Assembly (NCBI GenBank): GCA_964455285.1
Contig: CAYVVG010000007.1
Coordinates: 1,751-65,750 of the forward strand
Direction of reading: 5' to 3'
Length of the DNA: 64,000 nt
From: an uncultured Prolixibacteraceae bacterium
GTDB taxonomy: Bacteria > Bacteroidota > Bacteroidia > Bacteroidales > FEN-979
Shown here one piece after another: positions 585 to 63,528 of the stretch (the first letter of the stretch is position 1; each line of letters starts with the position of its first letter). Made by a program: the position numbers and the translations under genes. The notes under the pieces were generated by a model. That model searched no databases. It was not told the DNA's origin and was given only the letters and a program-made list of their open reading frames with translations.

Positions 585-608
585 CCAAATGTCTTTCTGT
601 TTACACAA

Positions 609-1400: not shown

Positions 1401-1430
1401 GGTCTTAAAATTTAATTTTACCTACTCTGG

Positions 1431-2060: not shown

Positions 2061-2061
2061 A

Positions 2062-2919: not shown

Positions 2920-3158
2920 ACCTCAGTTTGGAATTATTGGTTTTCTCAACAAGTTGAAAAACCGTTCAGGATATAATTAATTACCAGAGTTCGCTTTGCC
3001 TTGAGCATTATTGTCACTTACACAATGCTAAAGTAAACCATCACTGCGCCAATAGGTGACGTTGTAAGAAACCAATGCTTTTTTATTTTTCAACTCTACA
3101 ATGGAGCGATCAGACATTACAGACTATAGCAGATATTTTGTATTCATTTGAAATCCCG

Positions 3159-3166
3159 TACCTTTG
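3159..3166 (+). promoter_or_regulatory. candidate Bacteroidota -7 promoter box (TAnnTTTG)
   Basis: TACCTTTG lies 24 nt upstream of the ATG at 3191. The motif is short (about 30 chance hits expected in 64 kb), so only its position supports it. Confidence 0.3.
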
Positions 3167-3190
3167 CAACCTAAACCCAATTCAAAAAAG

Positions 3191-3940: not shown

Positions 3941-3960
3941 TCGGATCATGTGATCTTGAG

Positions 3961-3992
3961 AAAGCCTACCAGTTTGGTGGGCTTTTCTTATT
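3961..3992 (+). terminator. rho-independent terminator after the AT-hook gene
   Basis: Stem AAAGCCTACC / GGTGGGCTTT with one G-U pair, a 5-nt loop, then a T-rich tail TTTTCTTATT. Confidence 0.6.
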
Positions 3993-4268
3993 AAAGCGCA
4001 TAAACACCCCTCTATTCGTATTTGAATGTGGGATATAATATTGGATGTCTGTCGAATATATTGGTTTTCATGAAGAATTACTTTCCCTTAAACAACGATT
4101 TTCGACCTGTTTCAGGCGAATTGACCAAAAAAACAGCGGAAGTTGTTCGGAATCAAGATATACTACTGTAGCAACCTTGGTAGGTCGGGAAGCTGGTAAA
4201 TTGAAACAGTCTTTGACCCCAAACAAAAACTGTCTTGCTCTATATATTCAAATCTTACTAATCTCGTG

Positions 4269-5489: not shown

Positions 5490-5520
5490 AGGTCAAATTT
5501 TTTAAGGGTTAATACTTTGT

Positions 5521-5658
5521 TTACTGCTCGTTAGCTATTCGCTTGAAGAAAATTCTTAACCCATCACCGTACCCTTTAATTTCATCATATGTTGCAACAT
5601 CACCAACCTTATAAGGCTGGGAGGATGTATGTTCTTTATTAAATATGTAGTGCTTCAT
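5521..5658 (-). CDS. possible 45-aa ORF directly upstream of the integrase
   Basis: Hand translation: MKHYIFNKEHTSSQPYKVGDVATYDEIKGYGDGLRIFFKRIANEQ*. It ends 31 nt before the integrase start. It is below the ORF-track size cut-off and has no motif. Confidence 0.25.
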   Translation of the reverse strand: MKHYIFNKEHTSSQPYKVGDVATYDEIKGYGDGLRIFFKRIANEQ

Positions 5659-5958
5659 AGGGTTCGAAGATTACTTGGGTTCGCACTGCAAGTATACAAC
5701 CATTTTGCTCAGAAAAAAAACTCTTGACCATAATTTTACCACATTATTTTCAAAATCGACATAAATACCAGTATTATCAATCATTGTAAAAATATTCCTT
5801 TTTTTAACAATCTGATATACATTTTGTTATAATTTTTTTTGTTCGAACATATTATATATATTTAGATTATTGCATTAATATGATATACAGTATCTTTAAG
5901 TGATTTGATGGTTGGTGTGTGGGTAGGGTGCGAAGACAGTACGTCCCACATGAAAATC

Positions 5959-5996
5959 AGCCACTTGCAGGAGTTTTTGTGAGTGGCTTTTTGTTT
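5959..5996 (+). terminator. hairpin plus T-run near the island/chromosome junction (orphan terminator-like)
   Basis: AGCCACT (5959-5965) pairs with AGTGGCT (5982-5988), with a 16-nt loop, followed by TTTTGTTT. No obvious upstream gene on this strand. Confidence 0.3.
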
Positions 5997-6190
5997 GGGT
6001 ACACACCGAAGTACACACCAACTGTTTTTTCTAAACTTGCTTGTTATCTAACCAGGATCCCAACTTGAAAAACTCAACAATTACGCAAAATTTCTTACCC
6101 TATACTGACGATATCAAACGCTAGGCAAACTCACGCGGTTCATTTTATATTGCTTTGCGCAAAGTTTTTCCGTTGTTCGTGAGTAATCTG

Positions 6191-27777: not shown

Positions 27778-28359
27778 ATGAACATGGATCCGACCCTGCT
27801 ACCCCTTGATCATACCGCCGCCCTGCAACTGCTTCACCGGTATGTCAAAAATGAAAAGATGATCTTTCACTGCCTGGCTTCGGAGGCGGTGATGGCCGGG
27901 ATCGCCCGGAGGCTGGGCCGTGACGAACAGGCATGGGGGCTTGCCGGCCTCCTTCACGACCTCGACGTGGAGATCACCAACGCCGATCCCCTGGTACATG
28001 GAACGCAGACCGAAGTGCTGCTGAAAGATTACGACTTGCCGCCCGAGATCCTCGACGCCATCCGGATGCACAACGAATGTTCATCGGGGAAGGAGCGCAG
28101 CACCGAATTCCAGCACGCCCTGGCGGCCGGCGAGACCATCACGGGGCTGATCTTCGCCACCACCTATGTCTATCCCGAAAAGAGACTGGCCGTCGTGAAG
28201 CCGAAATCGGTGGTCAAGCGGATGAAGGAGAAGATGTTCGCCGCCTCGGTGAAGCGGGAGAACATCCTCGAATGCGAAAAGATCGGGATCCCCATCGACG
28301 AATTCGCCGCCCTGGCGATTGCCGCCATGCTGCCGGTTGCGGGGGAGATAGGGTTGTGA
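27778..28359 (+). CDS. HD-domain phosphohydrolase
   Basis: I chose the ATG at 27778 (MNMDPTLLPL...). H..(29)..LLHDLD metal-binding pattern and ..IRMHNE... The stop codon lies inside the heptamer array at 28354-28381. Confidence 0.8.
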   Translation: MNMDPTLLPLDHTAALQLLHRYVKNEKMIFHCLASEAVMAGIARRLGRDEQAWGLAGLLHDLDVEITNADPLVHGTQTEVLLKDYDLPPEILDAIRMHNECSSGKERSTEFQHALAAGETITGLIFATTYVYPEKRLAVVKPKSVVKRMKEKMFAASVKRENILECEKIGIPIDEFAALAIAAMLPVAGEIGL

Positions 28360-28381
28360 GTTGTGAGTCGTGAGTTGTGAG
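28354..28381. repeat. heptamer tandem array 4 x (TYGTGAG)
   Basis: ttgtgag ttgtgag tcgtgag ttgtgag. It contains the stop codon of the HD gene and lies 16 nt from the stop of the convergent 194-aa gene. Confidence 0.9.
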
Positions 28382-28397
28382 CCAAGTCAGGTGATTT

Positions 28398-29543: not shown

Positions 29544-29717
29544 ATTACTGTATATTAATTGATTAATAAATGGTATGTAACAGTTTCGGAAGTAATGGAA
29601 TGGTTACAAATTCGCAAACATGTAAAAATATGGTATATTTTCGATTCTTCCAAACCGCAGGAAAAAAACGGATGTTCATCCCGGTCACCATGACTGTTGC
29701 CAGAAGCGCTCGAAACG

Positions 29718-29752
29718 GTGAGCCGTGAGTCGTGAGCCGTGAGCCGTGAGTC
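29718..29752. repeat. heptamer tandem array 5 x (GTGAGYC)
   Basis: gtgagcc gtgagtc gtgagcc gtgagcc gtgagtc, ending 1 nt before the stop codon (29754-29756) of the 695-aa gene. Same motif and orientation as 28354-28381. Confidence 0.9.
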
Positions 29753-29753
29753 G

Positions 29754-31841
29754 TCACTTTACCACTAACTTACCCCGTGTTGCGGCGCCGTTGTTTCGGA
29801 TGACTTCCACCAGGTACATGCCCCGGGACAAACCGGCCAGGTCGAGACGGAAATCGGTTGTTGCTTGAAGTAGCCGGTGTTTCCTGACGGGCCGGCCGAA
29901 AAGGTCGGTCACATGTACCGCCTGCGGATGGCCCTCACCCCGTGAGTTAAACAGCAGGCGTGTGTAACCGGAGGCAGGGTTGGGAGTTATCGTAAAATCC
30001 CTCCCCGGTTGTTTATAAGCGGGTTCCGTCACCCCCACCGCAAAGGGTGACCGGGTAGAGAGAATTCCGCCCTGGGAACATCCGATCCAGCCGGTGCCGT
30101 CGGGTGAAACGGCCAGGGAGACCAGGTTCTGGATGGTCGTCACCGGTTCTGCAAGCCACTGATCACCGGATAGGGTAAATAACTCTGAACTGCCGATGGC
30201 ATACACATGTTCAGGGTCGGGATGACAGACATTGATAAGCCCGCCGGTTGATTCCGGACCGGGAGTCCAGGTGGATCCGTCAAAGTGATAGCTGACCCCG
30301 TGCATGTTGAATGAGGAATAGCCTACCGCCCATCCCGAGTTGGGGGAACAGAAAGAAACGGCTTGCATTACCTGGTCCGGCGGCGCAGCCATCTCCTCTG
30401 TCCAGGATCCCAACTGGTACCGGATGATCGCGTACTGAAATCCCGGGGATTTCCTGGCGATTCCCCAACCATGCGACGGATCCGTGAAGCTGAGGGAGCA
30501 TATCAGGCGGAGATCCGGGAAATAATAGGTGATCATTGAATTCCCGCTCAACAGGTAAACCCGGGCGCCACCGGAGACATAATCGGCCGCCAGCCAGGCG
30601 CCGCCATCTGGTAACGCACACACCACGCCGATCGGCACGCTAAGTGTGTCGGTGATCAGCTGCCAGCCCGAAGAAGAGTATCTGTACAGGAAAGTCTTGT
30701 GCAACCGGTTCGACCAACCGGCAGCGATTCCATGGTTCGTATCGGCAAAATGGATGTGCCGGATGTTCACTTCGCCGAAAGAGGTATCGGGAGCGAGGGT
30801 TCCGTGGTGATAACGAAGAATGTATTTTCCGTCGCCGGCCAGCCAGCCATGGGCCGTGTCGGGAAACGACAGGTCGATCCTGCCTTCGGCCAGGGTGTTT
30901 GAATAGTCCCAGCCCGACGCATCATGCCTTAGAATATGGCCCCACTCGGTTGCCACGTACATCTGCCCGGCACTGCCGGGAGCCAGGGCGTTGGGTGTGC
31001 CCGGATTCACATAAGAGCCTGTCCACCGGTTGCCGTCGAACTCAAAAACTGTCGTATCCGTCCAGAACCAGTTCGTTTGTCCTCCGCAACTCCACCCATG
31101 CTCCGGATTGTCAAAATGCAGATCATTGGAGGTGCATGGGGGATTCGACGGCGCCCATGACCAGGATGAGCCGTCGTAATTCATGATAAAATTCATCCCA
31201 TCGCTGTAAACGCCACCGATCCATCCGTGATCGGCATCATAAAAGAAGAGTGATCTGATATCGAGGATGTCGGAAGAAACCAGGGGATTCCAGTGCCAGC
31301 CTGTTTGGTCGTAACGGTAAAATTGCATGAATCCGCCGCACCATCCGTGATCCGGATCCGTAAAGCACACCTCGGTCACCCCTCCGTAACCGAGCGTATC
31401 GAGCGTGGTCCAGGCGGTACCGTCATAGTGCATTCTTACCTGGCCCACGGCCCAGCCATTGTCGGGCGAGGGAAAGCAAACGTCGTACAAATCCCTGGTG
31501 GTCCCTGCGTTTTCCTGTATCCAATCTCCGTTCGAGTACCTGAGCAGGGTGCCATGATTGCCCACCGCCCAGCCGTGGTTTTCATCGGTAAACCAAAGGG
31601 CGTTCAGATCCTGAAAAGTGATCCGGTCATACATGCTCCATCTTGTGCCGATGTAATGAAGAAGCTTCCCACCGTTCCCGACCGCCCATCCCTCGCCGGC
31701 CGAAGGAAAACAGAGATCATTCAGATGGTTGCCATCCCCTGAGGGGTTGTGCCAGTACCAGGTATGCTGGGCCCCGGCGGGCAGGTTCCCACAGAGAAGT
31801 CCGATTATCAGGAGGATTGCAGGTAACGGGAAGATCTTCAT
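29754..31841 (-). CDS. T9SS-secreted beta-propeller protein (Ycf48/BNR-like repeats)
   Basis: Signal peptide MKIFPLPAILLIIGLLCGNLPAGA. Repeated ..GWAVGN.G.LL.Y.G..W.. blades. CTD FTITPNPASGYTRLLF...GMYLVEVIRNNGAATRGKLVVK. Confidence 0.85.
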   Translation of the reverse strand: MKIFPLPAILLIIGLLCGNLPAGAQHTWYWHNPSGDGNHLNDLCFPSAGEGWAVGNGGKLLHYIGTRWSMYDRITFQDLNALWFTDENHGWAVGNHGTLLRYSNGDWIQENAGTTRDLYDVCFPSPDNGWAVGQVRMHYDGTAWTTLDTLGYGGVTEVCFTDPDHGWCGGFMQFYRYDQTGWHWNPLVSSDILDIRSLFFYDADHGWIGGVYSDGMNFIMNYDGSSWSWAPSNPPCTSNDLHFDNPEHGWSCGGQTNWFWTDTTVFEFDGNRWTGSYVNPGTPNALAPGSAGQMYVATEWGHILRHDASGWDYSNTLAEGRIDLSFPDTAHGWLAGDGKYILRYHHGTLAPDTSFGEVNIRHIHFADTNHGIAAGWSNRLHKTFLYRYSSSGWQLITDTLSVPIGVVCALPDGGAWLAADYVSGGARVYLLSGNSMITYYFPDLRLICSLSFTDPSHGWGIARKSPGFQYAIIRYQLGSWTEEMAAPPDQVMQAVSFCSPNSGWAVGYSSFNMHGVSYHFDGSTWTPGPESTGGLINVCHPDPEHVYAIGSSELFTLSGDQWLAEPVTTIQNLVSLAVSPDGTGWIGCSQGGILSTRSPFAVGVTEPAYKQPGRDFTITPNPASGYTRLLFNSRGEGHPQAVHVTDLFGRPVRKHRLLQATTDFRLDLAGLSRGMYLVEVIRNNGAATRGKLVVK

Positions 31842-33567: not shown

Positions 33568-33658
33568 GCCAGGTGCCCAATGCCAAGTGCCAAGTGCCAG
33601 GTGCCAGGTGCCAAGAGCCAAGAGCCAAGAGCCAGGTGCCAAGTGCCAGGTGCCAGGT
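33568..33658. repeat. heptamer tandem array 13 x (GCCARGW)
   Basis: gccaggt gcccaat gccaagt x2 gccaggt x2 gccaaga x3 gccaggt gccaagt gccaggt x2. It lies in the divergent intergenic region, 105 nt upstream of the ATG at 33763. Confidence 0.95.
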
Positions 33659-33675
33659 CAGCCGCGAAGCGTTCT

Positions 33676-33703
33676 GTCACCCGTCACCTGTCACGCGTCA
33701 CCA
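33676..33703. repeat. heptamer tandem array 4 x (GTCACNN)
   Basis: gtcaccc gtcacct gtcacgc gtcacca. This is the reverse complement of the GTGACGS motif seen at 47487 and 62621. Confidence 0.9.
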
Positions 33704-46577: not shown

Positions 46578-47453
46578 TCAGGTGTACAATAAGTCGGTGC
46601 GCAGGCGCAGGTACTTGCGCACGGCCAGCCGGGTCGAGATCCAGGAGATCGCCATGCCGAGCAGCGGGATGGCGCCGGCGATCACCGCCAGGACCAGCGG
46701 GTCCTCCAACTCTGCCAGTTCCGGGATGCGGTCGAGGGCAAGCCAGGTCACCCCCATGAGCGCGAGCAGGGCGAAAAAGGCGCTGATCAATCCGTGCAGC
46801 AGGCTGCGGTAAAGCAGGGGCCGGCGGATGAAACCTTCGGTGGCGCCCACCAGTTGCATGCTGCGGATGATGAACCGGCGTGCGTACACGGCCAGCCGGA
46901 TGGTGTTGTTGATCAGCACGATGGCGATGAAGAGCAGGATGGCGCCGAAGCCCAGCAGCAGAAAACTGATCTTCTCGATGTTGCGGTTGATGGCATCGAC
47001 CAGCGACGGTTGGTAGAACACCTCCTTCACCCCGGGCAGGGCCAGCAGTTTCTTTTCGATCTTCCGGGCCGAGTCGGGGCGGGCCCAGGGTGCGTTGATG
47101 CGCATCTCGATGGAGGAGAGCAGGGGATTGTATCCGAGAAAACCGGTGAAATCCTCTCCCAGTTCGGTCTTTAACCTTTCGGCCGCCTTCTCGCGCGAAA
47201 GGTATTCGCACGATTTGACGAAGGGCTGCAGATCGAGCATCTTCTTGATCTGCAGGATCTCCGGTTCCCGCACACCTTCGCGGATCATGACGGAGAAACC
47301 GATGTTCTCGCGGACATGATCGGAAAGGATGCGGGCGTGCAGCAGGATCATCCCCGCAAGACCGGTGAGGAACAGCACCAGGGTGATGCTGATGACCGTG
47401 GTGACCTGCGATGCGGCGATGCGGCGGCGGTAGTAACGCTGTTCGTGGCTCAT
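46578..47453 (-). CDS. ftsX: cell-division ABC permease-like protein FtsX
   Basis: 291 aa with one N-terminal TM, a periplasmic domain and three C-terminal TMs (..ISFLLLGFGAILLFIAIVLINNTIRLAVYARRFIIRSMQLVGAT..), the typical FtsX pattern. Confidence 0.85.
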   Translation of the reverse strand: MSHEQRYYRRRIAASQVTTVISITLVLFLTGLAGMILLHARILSDHVRENIGFSVMIREGVREPEILQIKKMLDLQPFVKSCEYLSREKAAERLKTELGEDFTGFLGYNPLLSSIEMRINAPWARPDSARKIEKKLLALPGVKEVFYQPSLVDAINRNIEKISFLLLGFGAILLFIAIVLINNTIRLAVYARRFIIRSMQLVGATEGFIRRPLLYRSLLHGLISAFFALLALMGVTWLALDRIPELAELEDPLVLAVIAGAIPLLGMAISWISTRLAVRKYLRLRTDLLYT

Positions 47454-47486
47454 GGCGGAATAGAGGGGTAAAGGTAAACAAATTTT

Positions 47487-47672
47487 GTAACGGGTGACGG
47501 GTGATATATCTACGATCTATGATGTGCGATCTACGATCTGATGAGGCAATAGGGAATAGGCAACAGGCAATAGTTGCCAGTCAACAGTCTACAGTCGGCA
47601 GTCGCCAGTCTTACTCTGTTACTTTGTCACTCTGTCACTTTGTTATTCTGTCACTTTGTTACTCTGTCACTC
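47487..47672. repeat. composite mosaic STR element: blocks A(GTRACGG) B(ATCTAYG) C(nAGGCAA) D(CAGTCnn) E(ACTYTGTY)
   Basis: 18 consecutive heptads (47487-47612) run in one unbroken register across four motif blocks, followed by 7.5 octamers (47613-47672). The element fills almost the whole gap between the ftsX start (47453) and the stop codon of the 454-aa gene (47671-47673). Confidence 0.95.
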
Positions 47673-49035
47673 AATAGAGTATGATCTTTGAGGTCAGATT
47701 TAATCTGCCGTCGCGGCTAGTAACACGAACCACGTAAAACCCGTCGGGGATTCCTGCCCGTGAAAGAGAATAGGGATCCGTTTGGATGCCGCTGCGAAAA
47801 ATCTCCCGTCCGGTGCAATCATAAAGGGAAAGTTCTGCCGATTCTCCGGAGGCAATTCCTGTCACTTTGATCACACAGCCGTCTGTGGCTGGGTTGGGGG
47901 CGATTGACAGGGCCGGCAAGGTGTCCGCCGGCGTTTCATTGACATCGAGCAGCAATTCAGAACAGTCGGATGCAAGTGGCGTTCCCCAGGTTTCATTGCC
48001 TTTGCGGTAATACACCAGCCGCCAGTCATAAGTGACAGTTATCCATTGCTGGTTTGGATCCTGGATGAGATATTGATTGAAAAAGCGGGTCTGTCCCAGC
48101 CCTTCGGCATATTCATAATACGGTTTATTATCATTGTAACTCCAACAGTTGGATGAGGGCAGATTCTTTATGTAATAGTTCACATAAAACCTTTTCTTTG
48201 GATGGTTATTGAAACCGCCACTGTAGCGCAGAAACAGATCGCAAGCAGTAGAGGATTTAGGTTCAAATTCGAAAGGCTGCCGGTAAAACGAAGAATAAAA
48301 ATCATGATTGTGGAGGATGATCGTGTCGGCAGTCGTATCATGATTGTTGTAATAGGTAATGGGCGGAAAATTCATTGAATGAGAACAACGGTCGGTCAGG
48401 TAAACGATTGTGTCACCGGTCGCCGACATGCTCTTTGAAAGGATAATGCGGATTTCCCGAATACCAGTCGCACCCAGTGTGCAACCTGCGTAGTAATCCG
48501 TGTGAAACTCATCCCCGACATTAAAATCGTATGCATCCCCGATCGGGAAATCCTGGAGCCCGATCGGCGGGGTGCATTTTCCCGATAAGGTCCTGGGAAT
48601 AGTATCCTTGGGGAAAAGAACCATGTCGAAAACGTGGGTCAAACCGTAATTCTTTGATAAGATGATCTTTTTGTCATTGATGATATGCGCGATGTTCTGG
48701 TTCATCCCGTTTTTCGCCTGGAGAGAGATCACCTTTACCTGGTCTGTCACACCGCACACGGAATCGGTCCTGATTTCAGCTATCGTGGCCTGAATGTACC
48801 CGGCCAGGGGCAACGATGCCATTTTCCATGATTGGTTTAAACCGGCATCGCATTTCAGAAAGATGGAATCTCCCTCATGGTTGAAAAAAACGAACGTTCC
48901 ACCGGCCTTCCCGAGTACTTTATTGCCGAGTATCGACCCGTTCCAGATATCATAACACCATTGGCCCGAAGTGAACTTCCGGAAAGTATTGTATGAGTAA
49001 AACATCGTATCGGAGGGATTCCCCGGAACTGCCAC
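47671..49035 (-). CDS. T9SS-CTD protein, apparently lacking an N-terminal signal peptide (possibly 5'-truncated)
   Basis: CTD LSIAPNPATDGCVIKV...GFYVVRVTSRDGRLNLTSKIILY. The ORF opens with GTG (MAVPGNPSD..). The in-frame upstream sequence ..AQCGRLSIICTPGITSWEDP.. is closed by a TGA at 49132-49134 without an ATG. No signal peptide appears in any frame up to 49228. Confidence 0.6.
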   Translation of the reverse strand: MAVPGNPSDTMFYSYNTFRKFTSGQWCYDIWNGSILGNKVLGKAGGTFVFFNHEGDSIFLKCDAGLNQSWKMASLPLAGYIQATIAEIRTDSVCGVTDQVKVISLQAKNGMNQNIAHIINDKKIILSKNYGLTHVFDMVLFPKDTIPRTLSGKCTPPIGLQDFPIGDAYDFNVGDEFHTDYYAGCTLGATGIREIRIILSKSMSATGDTIVYLTDRCSHSMNFPPITYYNNHDTTADTIILHNHDFYSSFYRQPFEFEPKSSTACDLFLRYSGGFNNHPKKRFYVNYYIKNLPSSNCWSYNDNKPYYEYAEGLGQTRFFNQYLIQDPNQQWITVTYDWRLVYYRKGNETWGTPLASDCSELLLDVNETPADTLPALSIAPNPATDGCVIKVTGIASGESAELSLYDCTGREIFRSGIQTDPYSLSRAGIPDGFYVVRVTSRDGRLNLTSKIILY

Positions 49036-49228
49036 CGCAGAATCGAGCCGGAAGGAAGAGATGTTCTTATTCGGATCTTCCCAGGAGGTGATCCCGGGTG
49101 TGCAGATGATTGAGAGGCGACCGCATTGGGCTCATTCCTTGAGAGTATTTTGTCAAATATAACCATAATATTGTTCTTCGCGTTTCTTCGTGCAGCCACT
49201 TCCCCGGGGATCCATTCGATCAGTTGTG

Positions 49229-49378
49229 GTAACAGGGTAAAAGAGTGACAGAGTGACAAAGTAACAAAGTGACAGAGTAAGACTGGCGACTGTAGACAGT
49301 AGACTGGCAATTATTGCCTGCTGCCTACTGCCTATTGCCTCATCAGATCGTAGATCGTAAATCGTACATCGTAAATCC
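49229..49378. repeat. composite mosaic STR element, inverted copy (E' D' C' B')
   Basis: 6.5 octamers GTRACARA (49229-49280) are followed by 14 in-register heptads (49281-49378): gactggc.. / gcctnnt.. / nagatcg... It ends 2 nt before the stop codon (49381-49383) of the 547-aa gene. Its reverse complement is collinear with 47508-47672. Confidence 0.95.
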
Positions 49379-49380
49379 CT

Positions 49381-51000
49381 TCACCTCACCACCACCTTCC
49401 CGCTTGCCACGGTTTGGTCGTGGTACGACAACCGGATGAGGTACAGGCCCGGCTGCCATCCCGAAACGCTTAAGGTGACCTCTTTTTCGCCGTATTTCAG
49501 TTCCCGCGTAAAGCGTTGCCGGCCGAACAGGTCGAACACCGCCAATGTGGTGGCCTCCCACCGTGCCCGCCAGGTGGTGATGCTGAAAGCCGTTGTTTTC
49601 TGTGTTGTTTTGATTTGGTTGGGCAAAACAATATGAAGCACATCCTCCGCCGGGTTCGGGAATATCAGTATCTCCGTGCGCTCATCCTCAGCCTGTTGCT
49701 CCTCCGTGCCAACCAGCACGCAGTTCAATGGAATGGTATCTGAGGGGATGGGATGAGGACACAGACTGTCGTAAGTGAACGGCCGGGTGTAAATGGAATC
49801 AAACTCCAGATTGGAGTTGAATTTATAGGCCTGGGTGGTCCATGTGCTATTTTTAAAACCTCCAACCAGTAATAACTTATTGTCAAATGTAGAAACTCCA
49901 TCGCCGAACATGTATTGATTTACAAACAAAGGTTTATCAATAAGGATGTCGCCATTTTGATTGCATTTGACAACTCCGACCATCCCATCTAACGTTGAGG
50001 TAAGCGTATCCGTCCATCCATAACCGAGGGCCAGGGTTGAATCGGCGAACCAGTTGATGGTGGAACAGGCGCCCATTTTGGATAAAGGAAAGATATCGTG
50101 GTAGCTGAGTTCATTCCCGCTTGAATCTGTTTTCATCATACAGGGTTTATCTCCAGCATTGGTCCCGCCAATGACGATATGCCGGCCGGCGGTATAGATT
50201 GTCCCATGGTTATCGGAAACAGAGCTATATGATTCTCCATAGAAATTCTCACTATTGATCAATGACCAGGGAAGTTCCCATTCCGCCGTACCGGTACTGT
50301 CTGTTTTGATGACGAACGGGCGAAGGTAATAAGGTGTCGAACTCCCCGGATCAGGATAATAGCAAAACCCTGAGATAATAAAGTGAAAATCAGAAGTCAA
50401 ATAGAGATCTTCGCCTTGCTCAAATTTAATATCTGTACTGGTCTGGCCATATAGATTTTTCCAGAGTAAATCTCCATTGTTATCCAGGCGATAAAGCCAG
50501 ACACGTTCGTGAATGGGATCATCACCATAGGAATAAATAAGAGCAATATAACCACCAGGAATCGGCCAAATTGCCTGACCCCATTCATCATTTGGATTTG
50601 GGGTGTTATAAATGCGGCACCATTCAGGTTCTGCGCATTTATTCAATTTCATAATGAAGGGATTATGTTGATTTGTTTGCTCTCCTGTGATTCCTGTCAA
50701 GATAATACCATCGTCGTATGTTTGATTGATATCCCGGATATCCGTAACATCATTTACATTTGAAACCGTCTTATACCACAGCATCTCACCGTTAATATCT
50801 GTTTTAATGATCATACCTTTTTTTGGTATTACACCTGAAACAAAGCCACCACCAATGACATACCCCTTATCATAGCCTTCAAATACTCCGCCGAACCAAT
50901 TTGACCTATTCAGAAAATAAATCTTATGCCATTCTTGGGCTTCAAGCCCGAGTGCCGACATTAAAATAAATAAAGAAAATAATGGAGTAATTTGTTTCAT
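49381..51000 (-). CDS. T9SS-secreted hypothetical protein (low-GC body, GC-rich CTD)
   Basis: Start at the ATG at 51000 (MKQITPLFSLFILMSALGLEAQ). CTD ILIFPNPAEDVLHIVL...GLYLIRLSYHDQTVASGKVVVR. Confidence 0.8.
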   Translation of the reverse strand: MKQITPLFSLFILMSALGLEAQEWHKIYFLNRSNWFGGVFEGYDKGYVIGGGFVSGVIPKKGMIIKTDINGEMLWYKTVSNVNDVTDIRDINQTYDDGIILTGITGEQTNQHNPFIMKLNKCAEPEWCRIYNTPNPNDEWGQAIWPIPGGYIALIYSYGDDPIHERVWLYRLDNNGDLLWKNLYGQTSTDIKFEQGEDLYLTSDFHFIISGFCYYPDPGSSTPYYLRPFVIKTDSTGTAEWELPWSLINSENFYGESYSSVSDNHGTIYTAGRHIVIGGTNAGDKPCMMKTDSSGNELSYHDIFPLSKMGACSTINWFADSTLALGYGWTDTLTSTLDGMVGVVKCNQNGDILIDKPLFVNQYMFGDGVSTFDNKLLLVGGFKNSTWTTQAYKFNSNLEFDSIYTRPFTYDSLCPHPIPSDTIPLNCVLVGTEEQQAEDERTEILIFPNPAEDVLHIVLPNQIKTTQKTTAFSITTWRARWEATTLAVFDLFGRQRFTRELKYGEKEVTLSVSGWQPGLYLIRLSYHDQTVASGKVVVR

Positions 51001-51075
51001 GTTAATCCGATGATAATAAACCACAAAGTTTCATGATGTGCCTGGCAATTGACTCGGGGTAAATTGAATGATCAA

Positions 51076-54000
51076 CTACCTGGTAAGGGTTACTTTGGCT
51101 TGCTGAAGGGCCTTTCCCTTGGTGTTCAGTGTCACGATATAAACACCCTGGCTCAGATCAACAACCGGAATTACTTTTTGGTCATCCCTTAGTGTTATTG
51201 GTACTATCAGGAGTGTTCTTCCTAAGATGTCAGTTATCTCGATATTGCAACCTGCGCTGATATCTTGCAGATGATACTCCACAATGAAATGAGTGTTTGC
51301 CGGATTGGGATAAACCTTAAGCAGATTTCCTTCAAAATGAAATATAACGCCGCGGTACTTATCCCGTTTCGATGATTTTAAACCGGATTCCGGTAACAGG
51401 ATTGGCTCCGTGTACGTGATTTTCTCTGCAGCGAGAAGAAGGTTTCGGGCAAACGCACTCACTTGCCCCTGGTCTGAATTACTAATGAACAAAAGTGTTT
51501 GCACGTCCGTACTGTCAATATTCAGAACGGCAAGGGTATCCGTCGCAACTTTTTTAACAATTTCAAAAAGATATTCAAATGACTGTTGAGTTTCTTGCTG
51601 TTTTTCATCTAGAGAAAAGGAGACAGGAATCAGCGAAAGGGCATTTAATCCTATCTGATATTCCCCCTGCTGAAAATATGTAGCGACCCTATCATACCAG
51701 GAATCAATAGTATTCCTTTGTAGCAGGATATAGATCAGGCTGTCATTGGCAAACCCGTCCGCTGTATCGTTACGGTAATATCGCAGGAGGTTGTGATAAT
51801 GTTTGCTCCGTTCCTCATTCCAAAAGGCCTTCTGTGATTCAAGGCGCTCTTTGCCGCTGACTGAATCTTCTCCCTGCAGAATCTCCGCCATCAGGTAGTC
51901 GGGCATTGGTATGGTGCGATTCTCCAGCATATCAACCAGCATTTCCGATTTGGCCGAATGCGGATTGGCCACCATGATATCGCGTATCATCGCGTTGCTC
52001 AGTACCTCTTCCTTTTCTATGGCTGTTTGCATCACGGTATCTGACACATAGGGCGATGTGGCCAATAGCTCATCGCGGGTGGGCAATGCTTCAGGAGGGG
52101 TGCTGGTTGCAACTTCCTCAGAGAGGGTTTCGGTAGAACCCCCATCGACAAGTGTATTTAAAATAGTATTGATGCTGTCGGATGCTTCTGCAGATGACAC
52201 CATAGCATCAATTTCTTCATTGCCATTTCCACCCACGCTAATGCTTGATGGACAAGCTAATATCTCATCAAATCCAATGCCAACTGGATATGGGGTAATA
52301 GGTCCATTTGGATAATCAGGCTTAAGACGATATTGAGGCACCTGTACATTATGAAAATAGTAATTAATTAAAGCAAGCCCATTATCCAAATCAAAATGAG
52401 AAGGAAGGGGTGTATAATCGAACATATTACCAGCCGGCCCTGTTGGAGTGGCTGAATTTGTTCCCTGGTTTTCCGCTATCCCGAAGTCTTGTTGATTTGG
52501 AATATTAGGGTCTTTGGTAACGGCGATATCGGAGTAATTGTCGAAGAATTTGTTGCATTTGTAACAAAGACCTTCTTTTGTAACGGCGTTCCGGTTCCGG
52601 TTCTGGGCTATGGTGGCATAGGATAGGTTGGTAAAGGTATTCCGGTAGATCCGGTTGATTTCGGCGGGATTGTTGACAATGGAATTATTGATGATCAATC
52701 CGATGCCGTCGCAGTATTCGCCTTCGGAATAGAAAGTATTTTCCTCCACCTGGTACCCGCCACATTCATTGAGGTACATTCCGTACGTATCGACATATTC
52801 CTCGCCGGGCCGGTAAGACCGGAAATTGCAATTCACCACCGTGGAGTTTGCCGCGCCGCTGGAAGCGCTGATATATAAGCCTTTCACGTTGTCGTAAAAG
52901 TTAGTGTGCCGAATATTGACGTAGGTAAGGCTACCGGAATTCAGAGAGACGACTCCCTTTGAAAGCTTTTCAAACGCAGAAGGGACGGGTTCATTGCAGG
53001 GAACTTCATCCACCAGGCATCCCTCATCCATAATCAGGCGCGAATTATCACAATAAATACCCGTACCGCGTACCGAAAGGGGTACGCTCTCCCAACTCCG
53101 GGTATTTTTAAAGGAACATCCGTAAACGGTAACATCGGCCACGCCATAAGCCTTGATGAAGCAATCGGGCGTCACCGATTCATTCAGCACTGCATTGGTA
53201 ATGAAACTTGAATTCTTGAAATAGGATCGATTGAAATATGTATAGGGGGAAAAGAGGACCGCAACTTTATTGTTGATAAAATTACCATCGGTACACCAAA
53301 TCAAACCCCCGGCATACCTGGGAGCGAATCCGCTTCCGTCGTCCAGCATTTTTCCTGCCAGGATCCCAATCTCGGCATTTTCAATGGTGCCACCGTTGAT
53401 AATTTGAAGCCTTCCCTGGTTGGTCACCGGTATCTGTGCCAGGTCGCGATCGCCCCAAACCTCGATACCTTTCCATAAATAACCACAGTTCTGCGTAATC
53501 CTTCCCCCATTGAGAATCAGTCTTGCACCTTGTTCGATTATGATACGTGAGCCTTTAGGCATATAAAGGGTGCCGGTGACTGTCAATGTATTTGGCGCTT
53601 TAATCTTGAAGCTATTTTCAAGGATACGGTCATTAGACCATGTTTCAGTTGCGGTTACCTCCTGATAAATATTATCGGACGATAACAAATCGGTCTCCCA
53701 CAAACCCCTTCCGAAAGTAGCGGCCACCAGTTTGCCGGTGCATGGGTTTATTTTGATCTCGGTCACCCTCACGTTTGGAATATTGCCATACCGGGTCCAG
53801 TTAGCAGTCGGGGCAGTTTTGACATACACTCCGGCGTCGGTGGCGATGTACAGCCGGTCGTTGGTTCCTTCCTGGTAAACGATTCCGTTGATGGGCAGGT
53901 TAGGGAGCGATCCTGTCGGATCATAATTTGACCAGGAGTACCCGCCGTTCGAGGAATAATATACTTTTAATGTCGGGTAATACCCGGTTAAACTGATCCA

Positions 54001-56244
54001 GATCTTATTCGGGTCACTGGGATGGACGGCGATACCGGTGATAATCGGATGATATATGGTGGTATCGCCCGGAATGACCGGCAGGGAGTCGGTCAGATCG
54101 GCAAACTTGTCGATGGAGTAATTTCCGTTGTTGCCGCCGGTGGTGGAACGGTACAACTGGGGAGGAACAACACCCCAGGTAGGATCAATCTGACCTCCCA
54201 CGACGATGTAAATGTAGTTTTTATTGCTGGGAGCAATGGCGAATTCGGTAATCTGCCTTAAATCAATCGTTGACATGTATTTAGAAATATCCGATTGAAG
54301 TTTCCACAGCGTGTCTCCCAGGTCATCCGGACGCATTTTCTTGCGTTCAAATAGTTCTGTGAATCCAAATATTGGATTATTCTCTGATATATGTTTATGT
54401 ACCTGAAATGTCTTGGGAAGTTTTACAGTTAAATTGGTAATAGGATCAAGCGGCAAAAAGTGAGTGTTGCCGTATTCTTCAGCAACCACACTACTGGATG
54501 ATGGCACGTATTCATGTCTCCAAAAGGTATCGCTCTTGTCGATGAATGAAATTCTTTCAGCCTGATAACCTATTTGCGCTCCATAACCATCTCCGTCAGC
54601 AATTGGAGACCATAGTAAATTTCCATTATTCAAATGTCTGATTTTAGTGCCATTGCACTGAAAACCTGTAATAGTATAGTCTTTGTACATTTTCGAAATA
54701 TCAAAACTCCAAATCATTGAGACATTCAATCCGGAATATTTGCGTGTCCAATAAGGTGTCACAACTGATGTTTTAACTTCATGCACGCTTATCCCGCCAT
54801 GTGTTGCAGCAAAAAGCTTTGGCTCTTGCGATACATTGGGCTGAAAACACAGTGTATGACAATCAGCATGATAACCGTGTTCATTGTATCTGCATTCAAT
54901 ATTCCAGACCGGAGATGATGCTAAGACATTTCGACACCCACAAACCCGGGTATGACCATAAAAGAGTTGATTGGCATCGACAGGTGAAGAAGCAATCCCC
55001 AGCCAATCTGGAGAAAATTGTCCATACAAATTTACCTCATGGTTATATTTATGACTATTGTCAACGCGTAGTTGGGTCCAAGTGTTATTTCTAAACATAA
55101 AAATATAAGCAATTTGTGATGCCCTGCATTGAGGATTTGTGCAAAGGTACGTTCCCTCAATATAAGCATAAAGTCGCGTCGAATCTGCAGGTGTAACGGC
55201 AATATTGATCCTGTTAACTTCGCATTGCGGTAATGAATCTATAATGAGACCAAAGGGGAATGTCATTGATTGCCATGTATTCCCACCGTCTGTTGATCTG
55301 TAAATATCCTTTCCACTGGTATAGATCGTCGAAGGATGCCCGGGTTGAAATTCCAAGCCCCGGTATTCATAGTCGGTCGAATCAAGCCCGATGAGACACC
55401 TTGTCCATAATGGCGCATTTGCAAGGGCATTGTTTGTCCTGAATATTCCTTTTGAGGTCGCAACAAAAAGTTGATTTGAGTTTTGAGGATTGATAATCAC
55501 TCTTCGTGTTGTACCTGATGTTTGAAAATATTCGATAAAGCCATTATTAATTGGTTGCCAGGTAATCCCGGCATTGGTCGATCTATAAATGCCGCTGGTC
55601 GAAATGGGATTGATTATTCCCCAGTTGGGATTTGATTTAAACGAGACTCCGGCATCACCCAGCCCTGTGGATATAAATAACGCGTTTGAGTTGTCATAAG
55701 CAATCGCAATATCTGAGACACTAGTCATGGGAAGTTGATGATCAGTATTTACAACCTCCCATAAGTCTCCATTATTGATCGTTTTCCATAGTCCGCCGTA
55801 AAAAGAAGCTGCATAGATCACTTGATTGCTGGTACTATTGTATTGAGGGTCAAATGTTATTCGATGAATTTGGCCGTTTCCATTTGTTTCTGGTACCCCC
55901 TCTTCATCTGACCCGATCGGACCTAAAGGGGTCCAGGTAATCGAACTTAATTCAGTGCTATCCGGACCATTGTTTAAGAAGTCCATGTAATATTCTGAAA
56001 GGGCCTGCATTGCTACCCCAGCATTGCCATGCGGATATAACCGTGGTCCCCAGATGGAAAAGGTCCTGTCATACTCTTTTGCAAATCCACTCCGCCGATT
56101 GGTGTCGCCAATAGCAGGCATTGGATTATCCTGATAAAAATTCAGCATGAATTCGTACAGGTTGTTGCCGTCCTGGTTTTGAGCCAATGATGCAAGTTGA
56201 CAAATAATCAACATAATCGTGATAATGAAATGCCGCGTTTTCAT
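51076..56244 (-). CDS. 1722-aa T9SS-secreted protein (N-terminal BNR/sortilin-like propeller, right-handed beta-helix region, CTD)
   Basis: Signal peptide MKTRHFIITIMLIICQLASLAQ. Asp-box-like STDGGNTW, SSNGGYSW, STTGGNNG. CTD LKVYPNPANTHFIVEY...GVYIVTLNTKGKALQQAKVTLTR. GC is markedly lower than in the core genes. Confidence 0.85.
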   Translation of the reverse strand: MKTRHFIITIMLIICQLASLAQNQDGNNLYEFMLNFYQDNPMPAIGDTNRRSGFAKEYDRTFSIWGPRLYPHGNAGVAMQALSEYYMDFLNNGPDSTELSSITWTPLGPIGSDEEGVPETNGNGQIHRITFDPQYNSTSNQVIYAASFYGGLWKTINNGDLWEVVNTDHQLPMTSVSDIAIAYDNSNALFISTGLGDAGVSFKSNPNWGIINPISTSGIYRSTNAGITWQPINNGFIEYFQTSGTTRRVIINPQNSNQLFVATSKGIFRTNNALANAPLWTRCLIGLDSTDYEYRGLEFQPGHPSTIYTSGKDIYRSTDGGNTWQSMTFPFGLIIDSLPQCEVNRINIAVTPADSTRLYAYIEGTYLCTNPQCRASQIAYIFMFRNNTWTQLRVDNSHKYNHEVNLYGQFSPDWLGIASSPVDANQLFYGHTRVCGCRNVLASSPVWNIECRYNEHGYHADCHTLCFQPNVSQEPKLFAATHGGISVHEVKTSVVTPYWTRKYSGLNVSMIWSFDISKMYKDYTITGFQCNGTKIRHLNNGNLLWSPIADGDGYGAQIGYQAERISFIDKSDTFWRHEYVPSSSSVVAEEYGNTHFLPLDPITNLTVKLPKTFQVHKHISENNPIFGFTELFERKKMRPDDLGDTLWKLQSDISKYMSTIDLRQITEFAIAPSNKNYIYIVVGGQIDPTWGVVPPQLYRSTTGGNNGNYSIDKFADLTDSLPVIPGDTTIYHPIITGIAVHPSDPNKIWISLTGYYPTLKVYYSSNGGYSWSNYDPTGSLPNLPINGIVYQEGTNDRLYIATDAGVYVKTAPTANWTRYGNIPNVRVTEIKINPCTGKLVAATFGRGLWETDLLSSDNIYQEVTATETWSNDRILENSFKIKAPNTLTVTGTLYMPKGSRIIIEQGARLILNGGRITQNCGYLWKGIEVWGDRDLAQIPVTNQGRLQIINGGTIENAEIGILAGKMLDDGSGFAPRYAGGLIWCTDGNFINNKVAVLFSPYTYFNRSYFKNSSFITNAVLNESVTPDCFIKAYGVADVTVYGCSFKNTRSWESVPLSVRGTGIYCDNSRLIMDEGCLVDEVPCNEPVPSAFEKLSKGVVSLNSGSLTYVNIRHTNFYDNVKGLYISASSGAANSTVVNCNFRSYRPGEEYVDTYGMYLNECGGYQVEENTFYSEGEYCDGIGLIINNSIVNNPAEINRIYRNTFTNLSYATIAQNRNRNAVTKEGLCYKCNKFFDNYSDIAVTKDPNIPNQQDFGIAENQGTNSATPTGPAGNMFDYTPLPSHFDLDNGLALINYYFHNVQVPQYRLKPDYPNGPITPYPVGIGFDEILACPSSISVGGNGNEEIDAMVSSAEASDSINTILNTLVDGGSTETLSEEVATSTPPEALPTRDELLATSPYVSDTVMQTAIEKEEVLSNAMIRDIMVANPHSAKSEMLVDMLENRTIPMPDYLMAEILQGEDSVSGKERLESQKAFWNEERSKHYHNLLRYYRNDTADGFANDSLIYILLQRNTIDSWYDRVATYFQQGEYQIGLNALSLIPVSFSLDEKQQETQQSFEYLFEIVKKVATDTLAVLNIDSTDVQTLLFISNSDQGQVSAFARNLLLAAEKITYTEPILLPESGLKSSKRDKYRGVIFHFEGNLLKVYPNPANTHFIVEYHLQDISAGCNIEITDILGRTLLIVPITLRDDQKVIPVVDLSQGVYIVTLNTKGKALQQAKVTLTR

Positions 56245-56413
56245 GGCAGTGGGGTAATGATGTTATAAAAATTATTGGGAATTCGAAAGATGGGAATAAA
56301 ATTACAATATAATAAAGCCATTGTCAAGGGAAACTTTTACACGGATTTTGTCCGAAAATCGGACGGATTGGTGCCTTTGAAAAAGCTATCCAATTGGATG
56401 ACTGACGACTGAC

Positions 56414-56449
56414 AAAAAAAATCGGGGCAACTTTTCTGCCCGGATTTTT
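56414..56449. terminator. orphan bidirectional terminator-like hairpin (A-run, stem, T-run)
   Basis: AAAAAAA ATCGGGGCA-acttttc-TGCCCGGAT TTTT, with 8 of 9 stem pairs. No annotated gene ends here. Confidence 0.3.
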
Positions 56450-56533
56450 CAGGGTATCGTGCATTTCCGGCGGGAAAATCCCCTTCGTGAAGGTGAAAAT
56501 ATCTGATCCGGACCATGGAATTCCATCCGGGAT

Positions 56534-56578
56534 GCAGTCAGCAGGTACTCTGTTATTCGGTCACTCGTCACCTCACCA
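56534..56578. repeat. degenerate D/E-type STR block
   Basis: gcagtca gcaggt actctgtt attcggtc actcgtc acctcacc. It resembles the CAGTC and ACTYTGTY blocks of 47578-47672. Confidence 0.5.
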
Positions 56579-56659
56579 ACACTTCATGACACTTCTTTCG
56601 TTTGGCAAATAAAACGAATCGTGACTCGATGCAACCCGACGGGCCCGGTTGGTTATTTG

Positions 56660-56701
56660 GTGATATATCTACGATTTACGATGTGCGATCTACGATCTGA
56701 A
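56660..56701. repeat. dispersed copy of the 42-nt A-tail/B block
   Basis: gtgatat atctacg atttacg atgtgcg atctacg atctgaa matches 47501-47542 at 39 of 42 positions. Confidence 0.9.
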
Positions 56702-56895
56702 AGCTGTCGCTTCGTGTTGCCATTTTCCTTTTTTCACCACAATAGGCACAATAGGACCCCATTGGGGTTTCCCTGATGTGTTTTCTGTTTGGCCTATGTG
56801 ACTGATATGGTTATTCCCACGGAAAGGCTAACTTTGCAGATTCCCGGCGTTCATCGTGAAAATCCGGGAAGATGAAGGAATTTCTATAAAATAAC

Positions 56896-57114
56896 CGCAG
56901 AGACGCAGAGACGCAGAGAATTCCCCTCCCTGTTTGGGGAGGGGAAGGCCGAAGGCCGGGGTGGGGCAAAATCTGCAGAGACGTAAAGGATGAATCGGAA
57001 TAACACAGGAAATATAAAGACGCAGAGTATTGAATCGGGAGAACATCCAGGTAAGCTGATACGCACCGGGAGGAGGCATAGAGCAAGATTTCTCTGCGTC
57101 TCTGCGTCTCCGCG
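56896..57114. repeat. inverted pair of octamer arrays 3 x CGCAGAGA ... 3 x TCTCTGCG enclosing 171 nt
   Basis: The left arm 56896-56919 and right arm 57091-57114 are complementary at 23 of 24 positions. The interior holds hairpins CCCCTCC-ctgtttg-GGAGGGG and GGCC-gaa-GGCC, plus a ~40-nt imperfect tandem duplication (..CAGAGACGTAAAGGATGAATCGGAATAACACAGG / ..CAGAGTATTGAATCGGGAGAACATCCAGG). It ends 60 nt before the leuS ATG. Confidence 0.9.
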
Positions 57115-57174
57115 GTCATTTAATATAGTTACAAAGTAACCAAGCCACCCCGGGGTGGGAACAAATTTCAAGTT

Positions 57175-61941: not shown

Positions 61942-62638
61942 AGATAAGACCCGGATATTGCTCGCCGAGGACGACCTGAACCTGGGGGTCCTGCTGGTGG
62001 ATTACCTCGAAGCGGAAGGGTACGATGTCAAGCTGTGCAAAGACGGGGAGCTGGCGCTGAAAGCTTTTCAGGGCAGCCCGTTCGACCTCTGCCTGCTGGA
62101 TGTCATGATGCCGAAGATGGACGGTTTCGCAGTGGCAAAAGCCATCAGGAGGGTGGATAAGGCCATTCCGGTCATCTTCATCACGGCCCGGTCGATGAAG
62201 GAAGACAAGCTGAAGGGCTACGACCTGGGGGCCGATGACTATATCACCAAGCCGTTTGACGAAGAGGAGCTGCTCTGGAAGATCCGGGCGGTCATCCGCC
62301 GCATCCCGGAAAACCGGAACGAAAAACCCGCGGAGATCATCCCGCTTGGGAGATATACCTTCGACGTCCATAACCAATCGCTATCCATTGATGGAAAAAC
62401 CAGGCGGATCACCGAAAAAGAGAGGGAGATCCTTCTCTACCTGACCCGCCATGCCAACCGGCTGATCAAACGCGACGACATGGTCAAGGATCTCTGGGGC
62501 AGGAAAGATTATTTTCTGGGAAGAAGCCTCGACGTGTTCATCACCAAGATCCGCAGGTACCTGAATGAAGATCCGGCGCTGGAGATCGAAAGCGTGTTCG
62601 GCGTGGGTTTTATTTTTCACGTGACGCGTGACGCGTGA
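61934..62638 (+). CDS. OmpR/PhoB-family response regulator
   Basis: Start at the ATG at 61934 (MPEDKTRILLAEDD), overlapping the kinase stop by 8 nt. Receiver LCLLDVMMPKMDGF and winged-helix output ..LTEKEREILLYL..VFGVGFIF. The last codons (..HVTRDA*) are encoded by the GTGACGC heptamer array. Confidence 0.9.
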   Translation: MPEDKTRILLAEDDLNLGVLLVDYLEAEGYDVKLCKDGELALKAFQGSPFDLCLLDVMMPKMDGFAVAKAIRRVDKAIPVIFITARSMKEDKLKGYDLGADDYITKPFDEEELLWKIRAVIRRIPENRNEKPAEIIPLGRYTFDVHNQSLSIDGKTRRITEKEREILLYLTRHANRLIKRDDMVKDLWGRKDYFLGRSLDVFITKIRRYLNEDPALEIESVFGVGFIFHVTRDA

Positions 62639-62648
62639 CGGGTGCCAT
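62621..62648. repeat. heptamer tandem array (GTGACGS) x3 plus partial
   Basis: gtgacgc gtgacgc gtgacgg gtgccat. It contains the regulator stop codon (62636-62638). Confidence 0.9.
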
Positions 62649-63355: not shown

Positions 63356-63387
63356 GGTCACCATTCTGCCGGGATACAGAACCACAG

Positions 63388-63450
63388 TTGCCTGTTGCCT
63401 GTTGCCTGATGCCTGATCAGATCGTCGATCGTAGATCGTACATCGTAGAT
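63388..63450. repeat. composite STR element (C' B' blocks), 9 in-register heptads
   Basis: gcctgtt gcctgtt gcctgat gcctgat cagatcg tcgatcg tagatcg tacatcg tagatcg. Same block order and junction as 49316-49378. Confidence 0.9.
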
Positions 63451-63528
63451 CGGAATTCCGGTACACTCTTTGTTCCCTCCTTCCCTTTTGGTAATATTGT
63501 CCTCTCTTCCGGACGAAATCAAACCCGT

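Follow-up and report, generated by a model that had tools for sequence, protein, structure and literature searches.

Why is a gene of an uncultured bacterium bracketed by two long mosaics of tandem repeats that lie in opposite orientation? The gene is in a 64-kb stretch of DNA (hereafter, the window, to which all coordinates refer unless another locus is named) from an organism that FtsX and type IX secretion system (T9SS) homologues place in the uncultured Bacteroidales. It belongs to a family of T9SS cargo proteins, and the two mosaics on its flanks, here called arms, were compared as 47508–47672 and the reverse complement of 49229–49378. We found that the arms are diverged copies of one mosaic, that they belong to a wider family of intergenic arrays and that the gene between them is best read as the decayed, distal gene of an acquired island. 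We assign a probability of roughly 60% to the reading that the arms are intergenic arrays similar to short tandemly repeated repetitive (STRR) sequences and long simple sequence repeats (LSSRs), that they were copied locally and that their inverted arrangement is incidental.

Two diverged copies of one mosaic

The left arm (47490–47672, plus strand) occupies the intergenic region between ftsX and the end of the enclosed gene. It consists of block A (47490–47504; two copies of ACGGGTG), block B (47508–47541; ATCTACG-type), block C (47544–47573; AGGCAAT), block D (47574–47610; AGTCGCC) and block E (47611–47672), a run of CTYTGTYA octamers that overlaps the stop codon of the enclosed gene at 47671–47673. 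The right arm (49229–49378, minus strand) carries the same mosaic in the opposite orientation and begins 2 nt past the stop codon of a 539-amino-acid T9SS gene, referred to below as gene 2; its blocks lie at about 49229–49278 (E′), 49279–49311 (D′), 49312–49342 (C′) and 49343–49378 (B′). Tandem Repeats Finder gave a period of 7 for blocks B, C and D and of 8 (16) for block E, the units of which are CTCTGTCA and CTTTGTCA, with 3.7–7.5 copies per block.

A repeat finder returned two inverted pairs, 47508–47603 with 49281–49376 (96 nt, 88% complementary) and 47585–47662 with 49229–49306 (78 nt, 83% complementary), which are the longest repeats anywhere in the window. In a gapped alignment the arms agree at 130 of 148 positions (87.8%), which bears out the collinearity and common block order described in a first-pass annotation of this DNA. 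Three indels separate them, two of which (7 and 8 nt) correspond to one repeat unit each, the remaining one being of 2 nt. Relative to the left arm, the right arm has no block A, is one unit shorter in D and in E, and lacks a further 2 nt at the inner end of E.

The junctions between blocks are also shared. The 18-nt B/C junction ATCTGATGAGGCAATAGG is exact at 47536–47553 (plus strand) and 49331–49348 (minus strand), precisely where it had been reported, and the C/D junction TTGCCAGTC recurs at 47574–47582 and 49302–49310. A third junction, the 21-nt D/E junction CAGTCGCCAGTCTTACTCTGT, is likewise exact in both arms (47599–47619 and 49272–49292). No matches to the B/C junction or to the array patterns are expected in shuffled sequences. 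Independent slippage cannot produce the same junctions between unlike blocks; the arms were therefore copied from one mosaic and are diverged copies of it, as the first-pass annotation had argued. The constant block order and the boundary of block B, which recurs in the further copies described below, agree with this.

Such a structure could also be produced by an assembler that mis-joins sequences at arrays, leaving the enclosed segment misplaced or mis-oriented. The window does come from a metagenome-assembled genome (MAG), and its right junction is without independent confirmation: other assemblies were sought through gene 2 (with two start choices), the third gene of the island and the annotated product of the enclosed gene (P0001), with nothing on record. 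We nonetheless regard an artefact as highly improbable. In an independent Logan assembly (L001; SRR10083294), a contig passes unbroken from ftsX through the left arm to the 3′ part of the gene and matches the window at 99.96% identity, and all three assemblies available (the window, L001 and L002) have the same single orientation at the left junction. The longest exact tract common to the arms is ~27 nt, below usual assembly k-mers, and the order of gene 2 followed by the enclosed gene is the same in another genome (L025).

A family of arrays in intergenic spacers

The arms are not the only copies of the mosaic. A degenerate pattern for block B has four copies in the window, all clustered within 16 kb, the remaining 48 kb being free of them, and blocks B to E have no occurrence in the window beyond these four copies. 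All four close block B with CGATCTGA. The third copy is partial (blocks A and B; 56659–56700, plus strand), is 95% identical to 47500–47541 and has a direct orientation relative to the left arm; it sits near the far end of the island and is followed by two C-like units, CACAATAGG, at 56738–56755. The fourth copy (blocks B and C, with the junction GATCTGATCAGGCA; 63383–63455, minus strand) matches the right arm at 86% identity over 64 nt and terminates exactly at a breakpoint of synteny with the closest relative, L008 (FtsX 88% identical).

Related arrays occur in other organisms. A metagenome scan with the B/C junction led to L013 and L015, in which B and C are followed by a spacer, a D-like block (AGTCCGC) and a TAATTTT block. 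This mosaic has the same inner boundary of block B and fills the spacer from the stop codon of one gene to the ATG of the next, at a locus unrelated to the window. In a more distant relative (L012; FtsX 73% identical), a C block lies over the stop codon of truB and an E block lies 70 nt upstream of a sigma-factor gene; the truB stop, TAG, is supplied by the repeat unit AGGCAATAGG (12734–12757). L008 has D-type arrays of ACTGCCG, the reverse complement of AGTCGGC in register, which abut the stop codons of two genes, leuS and one for a response regulator.

B-like arrays are also present in L005 and L025, lower-GC genomes that have homologues of the enclosed gene. One such run in L005 (ATTACGATTTACGATCTG, 2.5 units; 9786–9803) lies 5 nt past the stop codon of an upstream ornithine carbamoyltransferase gene and precedes a 51%-identical homologue of the enclosed gene; the syntenic locus in L021 is without it. 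We considered whether arrays regularly accompany the family of the enclosed gene and rejected this idea, as the homologues in L003, L021, L024 and L025 are without flanking arrays and that in L005 has only the 2.5-unit run.

Across the window and its relatives there are about ten unit types. Spacers of the window hold arrays of GTTGTGA (at 28350), GTGAGCC (at 29714) and CGTGACG (at 62615), and the longest single array (33568–33702) comprises 12.6 units of GCCAAGT/GCCAGGT followed by 3.9 units of GTCACCC, in a divergent spacer upstream of a 1,328-amino-acid gene that is fn3- and purple-acid-phosphatase-like. A second inverted pair lies upstream of leuS, with three units of CGCAGAGA at 56885–56923 and three of TCTCTGCG at 57087–57125 (39 nt, 90% complementary). 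It encloses 163 nt, and the stretch within carries a GC-rich hairpin, cccctccctgtttggggagggg; most of the region (56876–57040) is absent from L008, which has related arrays, GACGCAAA and TGCGTCTC, at 9381 and 6064.

The placement of the arrays follows a pattern. Every array in the window lies between open reading frames (ORFs) or overlaps only a stop codon, and 11 of the 16 arrays examined in the window and its relatives begin no more than 10 nt from a stop codon, several of them containing it. Arrays that overlap or contain the upstream stop codon include 28350–28383, 29714–29759, 47611–47673 and 62615–62648 in the window, the truB array in L012 and 8550–8588 in L005. These cases suggest that arrays extend up to the coding boundary or prefer that site.

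Compared with the window, orthologous spacers of L008 have different arrays or none, and both arrays of L008 are 100% identical in four samples of its species. Arrays therefore turn over on the scale of species divergence, and the identity of the four samples rules out hypervariable variable-number tandem repeats. A decayed C′–B′ remnant in the L008 spacer, which might have pointed to the left arm as ancestral, was not significant (24 and 82 of 500 shuffles scored equally).

Which known repeats do these arrays resemble? The STRR arrays of cyanobacteria consist of 7-bp repeats whose function is unknown and for which roles in transcript stability or translational coupling have been proposed (PMC2670836). 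Like them, the window arrays are tandem units located in spacers, a description that also fits LSSRs (Mrazek et al. 2007, as cited in PMC4679880). Arrays of this general type have head-to-tail units of 5–11 nt, typically 7, in runs longer than chance would give, and recur at many spacers with several kinds of unit; the window arrays agree on each of these points. The likeness to STRR sequences extends to several kinds of 7-nt unit, a non-coding location, dispersal through the genome and, sometimes, a potential hairpin between genes. The differences are that the present arrays are found in Bacteroidales, have other units, include an 8-nt block and conserve block order and junctions, and that the complementary copies do not share one spacer but flank a gene, at a distance of 1.56 kb. 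As STRR sequences in the strict sense belong to heterocystous cyanobacteria, we consider the window arrays to work like them, by analogy, without being members.

A closer taxonomic match is provided by intergenic heptamer repeats (TAACTGA and others) in a few Bacteroidetes and Cyanobacteria, which occur as several kinds per spacer, are missing from the shorter spacers of close relatives and in some sets overlap the end of the upstream ORF (MacGregor 2015; PMC4679880). The window arrays share the intergenic location in Bacteroidetes, the mixture of kinds within a spacer, the absence from close relatives and the overlap with ORF ends. They differ in that their units are not TAACTGA, that they mostly abut stop rather than start codons and that whole mosaics are duplicated together with their junctions. 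Arrays of the STRR/LSSR type are thus already known; what is new here is the specific set of units and a block order that is conserved across organisms.

Alternatively, the arrays could be non-autonomous mobile elements, similar to miniature inverted-repeat transposable elements (MITEs) or to repetitive extragenic palindromes (REPs) and bacterial interspersed mosaic elements (BIMEs), that are moved past stop codons by an enzyme encoded elsewhere, the inverted pair representing two insertions. Mobility would fit the same block order at non-orthologous loci in different organisms, the variable presence of arrays at orthologous spacers, the preference for sites abutting stop codons and the occurrence of E-type arrays in unrelated contigs. 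The REP/BIME sequences of enterobacteria are dispersed, intergenic and mosaic, often lie just after stop codons in both orientations, and are imperfect palindromes linked to REP-associated tyrosine transposases (RAYTs). The window arrays are like them in placement and mosaicism but consist of non-palindromic 7–8-mers: single arms fold no better than shuffles on either strand (z = −0.2 to +1.1), unlike palindromic units that form stem–loops. The same fold scores, together with the lack of an adjacent integron integrase, speak against an integron cassette, in which the ORF is followed by an imperfectly palindromic attC site that folds as a single strand and intI is close by.

Other hallmarks of transposition are also missing. 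We did not find terminal inverted repeats, target-site duplications or fixed ends; the ends of the arms are not mutual inverted repeats and the copies are truncated at different blocks, which does not fit a transposon, insertion sequence or MITE. The window ORFs that were scanned include no transposase or RAYT-like gene, several ORFs at 38–45 kb and 60–62 kb being placed solely by synteny with annotated L008 genes. A scan for block B in 185,579 species genomes gave only two unrelated matches, in a gammaproteobacterial and a Rhodobacteraceae MAG, neither of which is a mosaic, and a scan of IMG/VR for the B/C junction gave no match. A MITE of Porphyromonas gingivalis, likewise a dispersed non-coding element of Bacteroidales with tandem repeats, is reported to carry a minisatellite (PMC4596501); the window arrays differ in having no detectable terminal inverted repeats and in being composed entirely of 7–8-nt blocks. 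Overall, we consider an origin as mobile elements to be unlikely.

A decayed cargo gene in an acquired island

The enclosed gene (47671–49131, minus strand) belongs to a T9SS cargo family of ~495 amino acids and unknown function, and its body and type A C-terminal domain (CTD) are intact. The CTD, which had been noted before, matches TIGR04183 above the cutoff (E = 8.2e-8; 32.1 bits versus a cutoff of 23) and PF18962 over the last 89 amino acids (E = 7.6e-7). There are 80 homologues, mostly of 480–515 amino acids, the closer of which span 98% of the open frame. When 13 homologues were aligned with it, the family N-terminus emerged as MKxxxFxxLLLLPLxxEAQNWQNIC; all 13 start with a hydrophobic leader (two are called a few residues shorter).

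In the window, the frame of the enclosed gene opens only at AQCGRLSIIC (49131), right after an in-frame TGA at 49134–49136. It has no usable start codon, the first listed start being a GTG at 49035, and the NCBI gene call covers only 383 amino acids (P0001). The first-pass annotation was correct, for this reading frame, that the gene has neither a signal peptide nor an ATG. Its description of the 190 nt upstream as non-coding does not hold: family homology continues in frame to 49131, and a putative remnant of the signal peptide, TRRTILWLYL (49154–49183, minus strand; compare MKSLTFLWLVLL in the family), is found in a different frame from the gene body. The remnant is ~14 codons upstream of the body, at the expected distance (21 of 2,000 shuffles of the 95-nt spacer score equally), and ACG (49181–49183) stands where its start codon is expected.

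The remnant is contained in an AT-rich spacer (49132–49228, minus strand) between the right arm and the in-frame body, together with TATATTTG, a candidate promoter motif that by eye resembles the Bacteroidetes −7 box. The 95 nt at 49134–49228 have no other copy in the window or in the fetched loci. Nor does the window hold the missing signal peptide elsewhere: a search with ten homologue N-termini returned only generic similarity to the leader of gene 2 (E = 0.04–0.19). That leader, ...LGLEAQEW, resembles the ...LEAQNW of the enclosed-gene family. The simplest account is that the enclosed gene has lost its start codon and that its leader has been frameshifted by an extra base near 49135–49140; a one-base assembly error combined with a divergent leader would be an alternative.

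A CTD protein without a Sec signal cannot reach the T9SS. We therefore interpret the enclosed gene as a pseudogene with an otherwise intact body.

The pseudogene is part of a 9.3-kb island (47477–56813; 45.0% GC) that contains three T9SS cargo genes and arrays and lies between ftsX and leuS. Upstream of the enclosed gene are gene 2 (49381–51000, minus strand; 539 amino acids, also given as 547), which encodes a cargo protein with both a signal peptide and a CTD, and a third gene (51076–56244, minus strand), whose 1,722-amino-acid cargo product has a CTD and BNR/sortilin-like repeats. The syntenic core gene ftsX (46578–47453, minus strand) follows downstream of the left arm. In L008, leuS and ftsX are divergent neighbours 708 nt apart, whereas they are 9.7 kb apart in the window, and by blastn the segment 47477–56813 stands in place of 485 nt of the L008 leuS–ftsX spacer (9492–9976). 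L012 has two different genes at this position.

Given its absence from L008, its GC content (45.0% versus 57.3% in the syntenic flanks) and the different content of L012, we interpret the segment as a horizontally acquired island in a variable insertion hotspot. The lower GC content reported for the enclosed segment is real (48.1% versus 57.3%) but is not specific to it, as the whole island is lower still. Among the readings first proposed for the locus, a decaying insertion has stood up well: the gene is in a low-GC acquired island and has lost its start and signal peptide.

The next question is whether the arms delimit a unit within this island. In L025, only 11 nt separate a full-length homologue of gene 2 (516 amino acids, 34% identity, E = 3e-92) from a 59%-identical homologue of the enclosed gene downstream of it, and we take gene 2 and the enclosed gene to be a conserved pair. 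Their spacer in the window is about 200 nt long, of which 150 nt are the right arm. The 11-nt spacer in L025 indicates that an array entered what was a spacer of the operon type and became the right arm; the spacer that follows is filled by the left arm. On this comparison the arms do not delimit the cassette that had been suggested as one reading: the enclosed gene is the second member of a pair, and its homologues in four other genomes are without flanking arrays.

The arms might nevertheless act as recombinogenic inverted repeats, through which the 1.56-kb segment is inverted or exchanged as a phase-variation-like switch or cassette shuffle. Their length of ~150 nt and their exact tracts of ~21–27 nt, which are near the minimal homology for RecA, would allow this, and the region is an insertion hotspot whose content differs among the window, L008 and L012. 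Invertons have short inverted repeats that flank a promoter, and they are flipped by a dedicated recombinase. The arrangement seen here is like the invertons of Bacteroides in that inverted repeats flank a segment near genes for surface or secreted proteins, and unlike them in that 150-nt arrays surround a whole pseudogene and its spacer.

Were the segment to invert, the upstream spacer, putative promoter and in-frame stops would travel with the gene, which would thus be neither switched nor repaired; the linkage between promoter and coding sequence would be unchanged, and the gene would be a pseudogene whichever way it faced. In the window, as in L025, the enclosed gene points the same way as its conserved partner. 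The left junction is the same in the three assemblies described above, and the Logan contig crosses the arm unbroken. There is also no invertase nearby. Pfam scans found no transposase or recombinase among the island ORFs, in keeping with the first-pass report of no transposase, which holds locally. The only recombinase in the 64 kb is a tyrosine integrase (4269–5489), 42 kb from the arms; for 38–64 kb, this statement is based on Pfam scans of island and flanking ORFs and, for the remainder, on synteny with annotated genes of L008. We consider inversion or exchange of the segment to be very unlikely.

The integrase lies in a region (1–6000; 36–42% GC) that also encodes a DnaA-like/IstB-like ATPase (2062–2919) and a fragment of an AAA ATPase (39–584), is without heptamer arrays and is probably an integrated mobile element. 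Between 6191 and 32830 there is a dense cluster of T9SS cargo genes, with at least seven more genes that carry a Por_Secre_tail domain, including subtilases of 1,400 and 2,203 amino acids and a cohesin/dockerin-bearing pair.

Pairing, copying and the role of the arrays

Possibly, the arms could form a ~150-bp duplex on a minus-strand read-through transcript, as the predicted energy of the arm–arm duplex is −213 kcal/mol versus −54 ± 7 kcal/mol for shuffles. If this duplex were functional, gene 2, the enclosed gene and ftsX would be co-transcribed and the arms, the right one as sense and the left one as antisense, would pair in an imperfect stem that loops out the enclosed gene; as a substrate of RNase III, the stem would silence or excise the pseudogene or uncouple ftsX from the island. 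The three genes are on the same strand and 47300–49500 has no terminator-like site. A promoter and terminator scan gave five promoter-like sites (3.0 expected) and no terminators (2.2 expected), with a sigma-70 consensus that is unsuited to Bacteroidetes. Cyanobacterial STRR sequences have been reported to form hairpins between genes, with a proposed effect on transcript stability (PMC2670836).

However, complementarity follows automatically from duplication in opposite orientation, and two copies cannot show compensatory changes. The remaining family members either have no partner or lie in direct orientation, and the arrays of relatives occur singly. Rfam returned nothing at the gathering threshold over the whole window, and a permissive E value over 47300–49500 gave only a meaningless match to a small nucleolar RNA (E = 0.96). 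We find a functional RNA duplex quite unlikely.

We favour the reading in which STRR/LSSR-like arrays were copied locally. A pre-formed mosaic would have been copied into nearby spacers, in either orientation, by recombination or replication template switching, and the copies would then have diverged by point changes and by the gain or loss of whole 7- or 8-nt units through slippage. The right arm would have landed in the normally 11-nt spacer of the T9SS gene pair and the left arm in the spacer before ftsX. The opposite orientation of the arms would be incidental, with no dedicated function, and the enclosed gene, the distal gene of the acquired island, is decaying. The comparisons show the anatomy of the arms, the family of arrays, the island, the gene pair and the state of the pseudogene; the way of copying and the lack of a dedicated function are inferred from them.

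Several observations weigh against local copying with an incidental inversion. There is no demonstrated mechanism by which a 150-nt array could be copied, whichever way round, to a new spacer, and within this genome our survey of arrays covers one 64-kb window. The absence of a terminator-like site between the arms makes co-transcription, and with it the predicted duplex, plausible and a function for the pairing conceivable. In addition, arrays edge every segment that is specific to the window relative to L008 (47477–56813, 56876–57040 and 62624–63455), and arrays at such edges could take part in rearrangement. The alternation of CTCTGTCA and CTTTGTCA in block E is also found, by convergence or spread, in four unrelated 'viral' IMG/VR contigs (L017–L020; 35–61% GC). 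Together with the conservation of units and block order at 73% FtsX identity, these E arrays suggest constraint or active spread instead of neutral junk.

Two of these cases can be described further. The window-specific segment 62624–63455 is edged by the CGTGACG array (62615–62648) and by the B–C copy (63383–63455) and holds a truncated AAA_14/DUF4143 gene of 205 amino acids, which is intact (439 amino acids) at a different locus in L008 (12825–14144). In L018, the E array (4831–4855) apparently lies between genes on the same strand and, like the left arm, may abut the upstream stop codon, as judged by eye without ORF calls.

A more far-reaching proposal would be that the arrays form an undescribed class of Bacteroidales element with a fixed grammar (ATCTACG, AGGCAAT, AGTCGCC and then CTCTGTCA), which is actively copied past stop codons and marks or mediates the junctions of new DNA. 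The inverted pair would then serve, in a polycistronic transcript, as a 150-bp double-stranded RNA clamp that silences or excises a defective foreign gene and insulates ftsX. We consider this doubtful, and distinctly unlikely as a whole.

If local copying of STRR/LSSR-like arrays is the correct reading, an odd inverted repeat becomes two copies of an array that is typical of the lineage, and a mis-annotated pseudogene is flagged in a T9SS island. An uncultured lineage of Bacteroidales carries STRR-like heptamer and octamer arrays, the units and order of which are conserved at 73% FtsX identity while their presence in individual spacers turns over, and these arrays lie close to stop codons and to the edges of DNA specific to the lineage. 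For the question of where such arrays come from and what they do, which dates back to their first description in cyanobacteria, a conserved block grammar in a second, unrelated phylum provides comparative material with which the candidate roles (products of neutral slippage, platforms for protein binding, RNA elements or by-products of DNA repair) can be compared.

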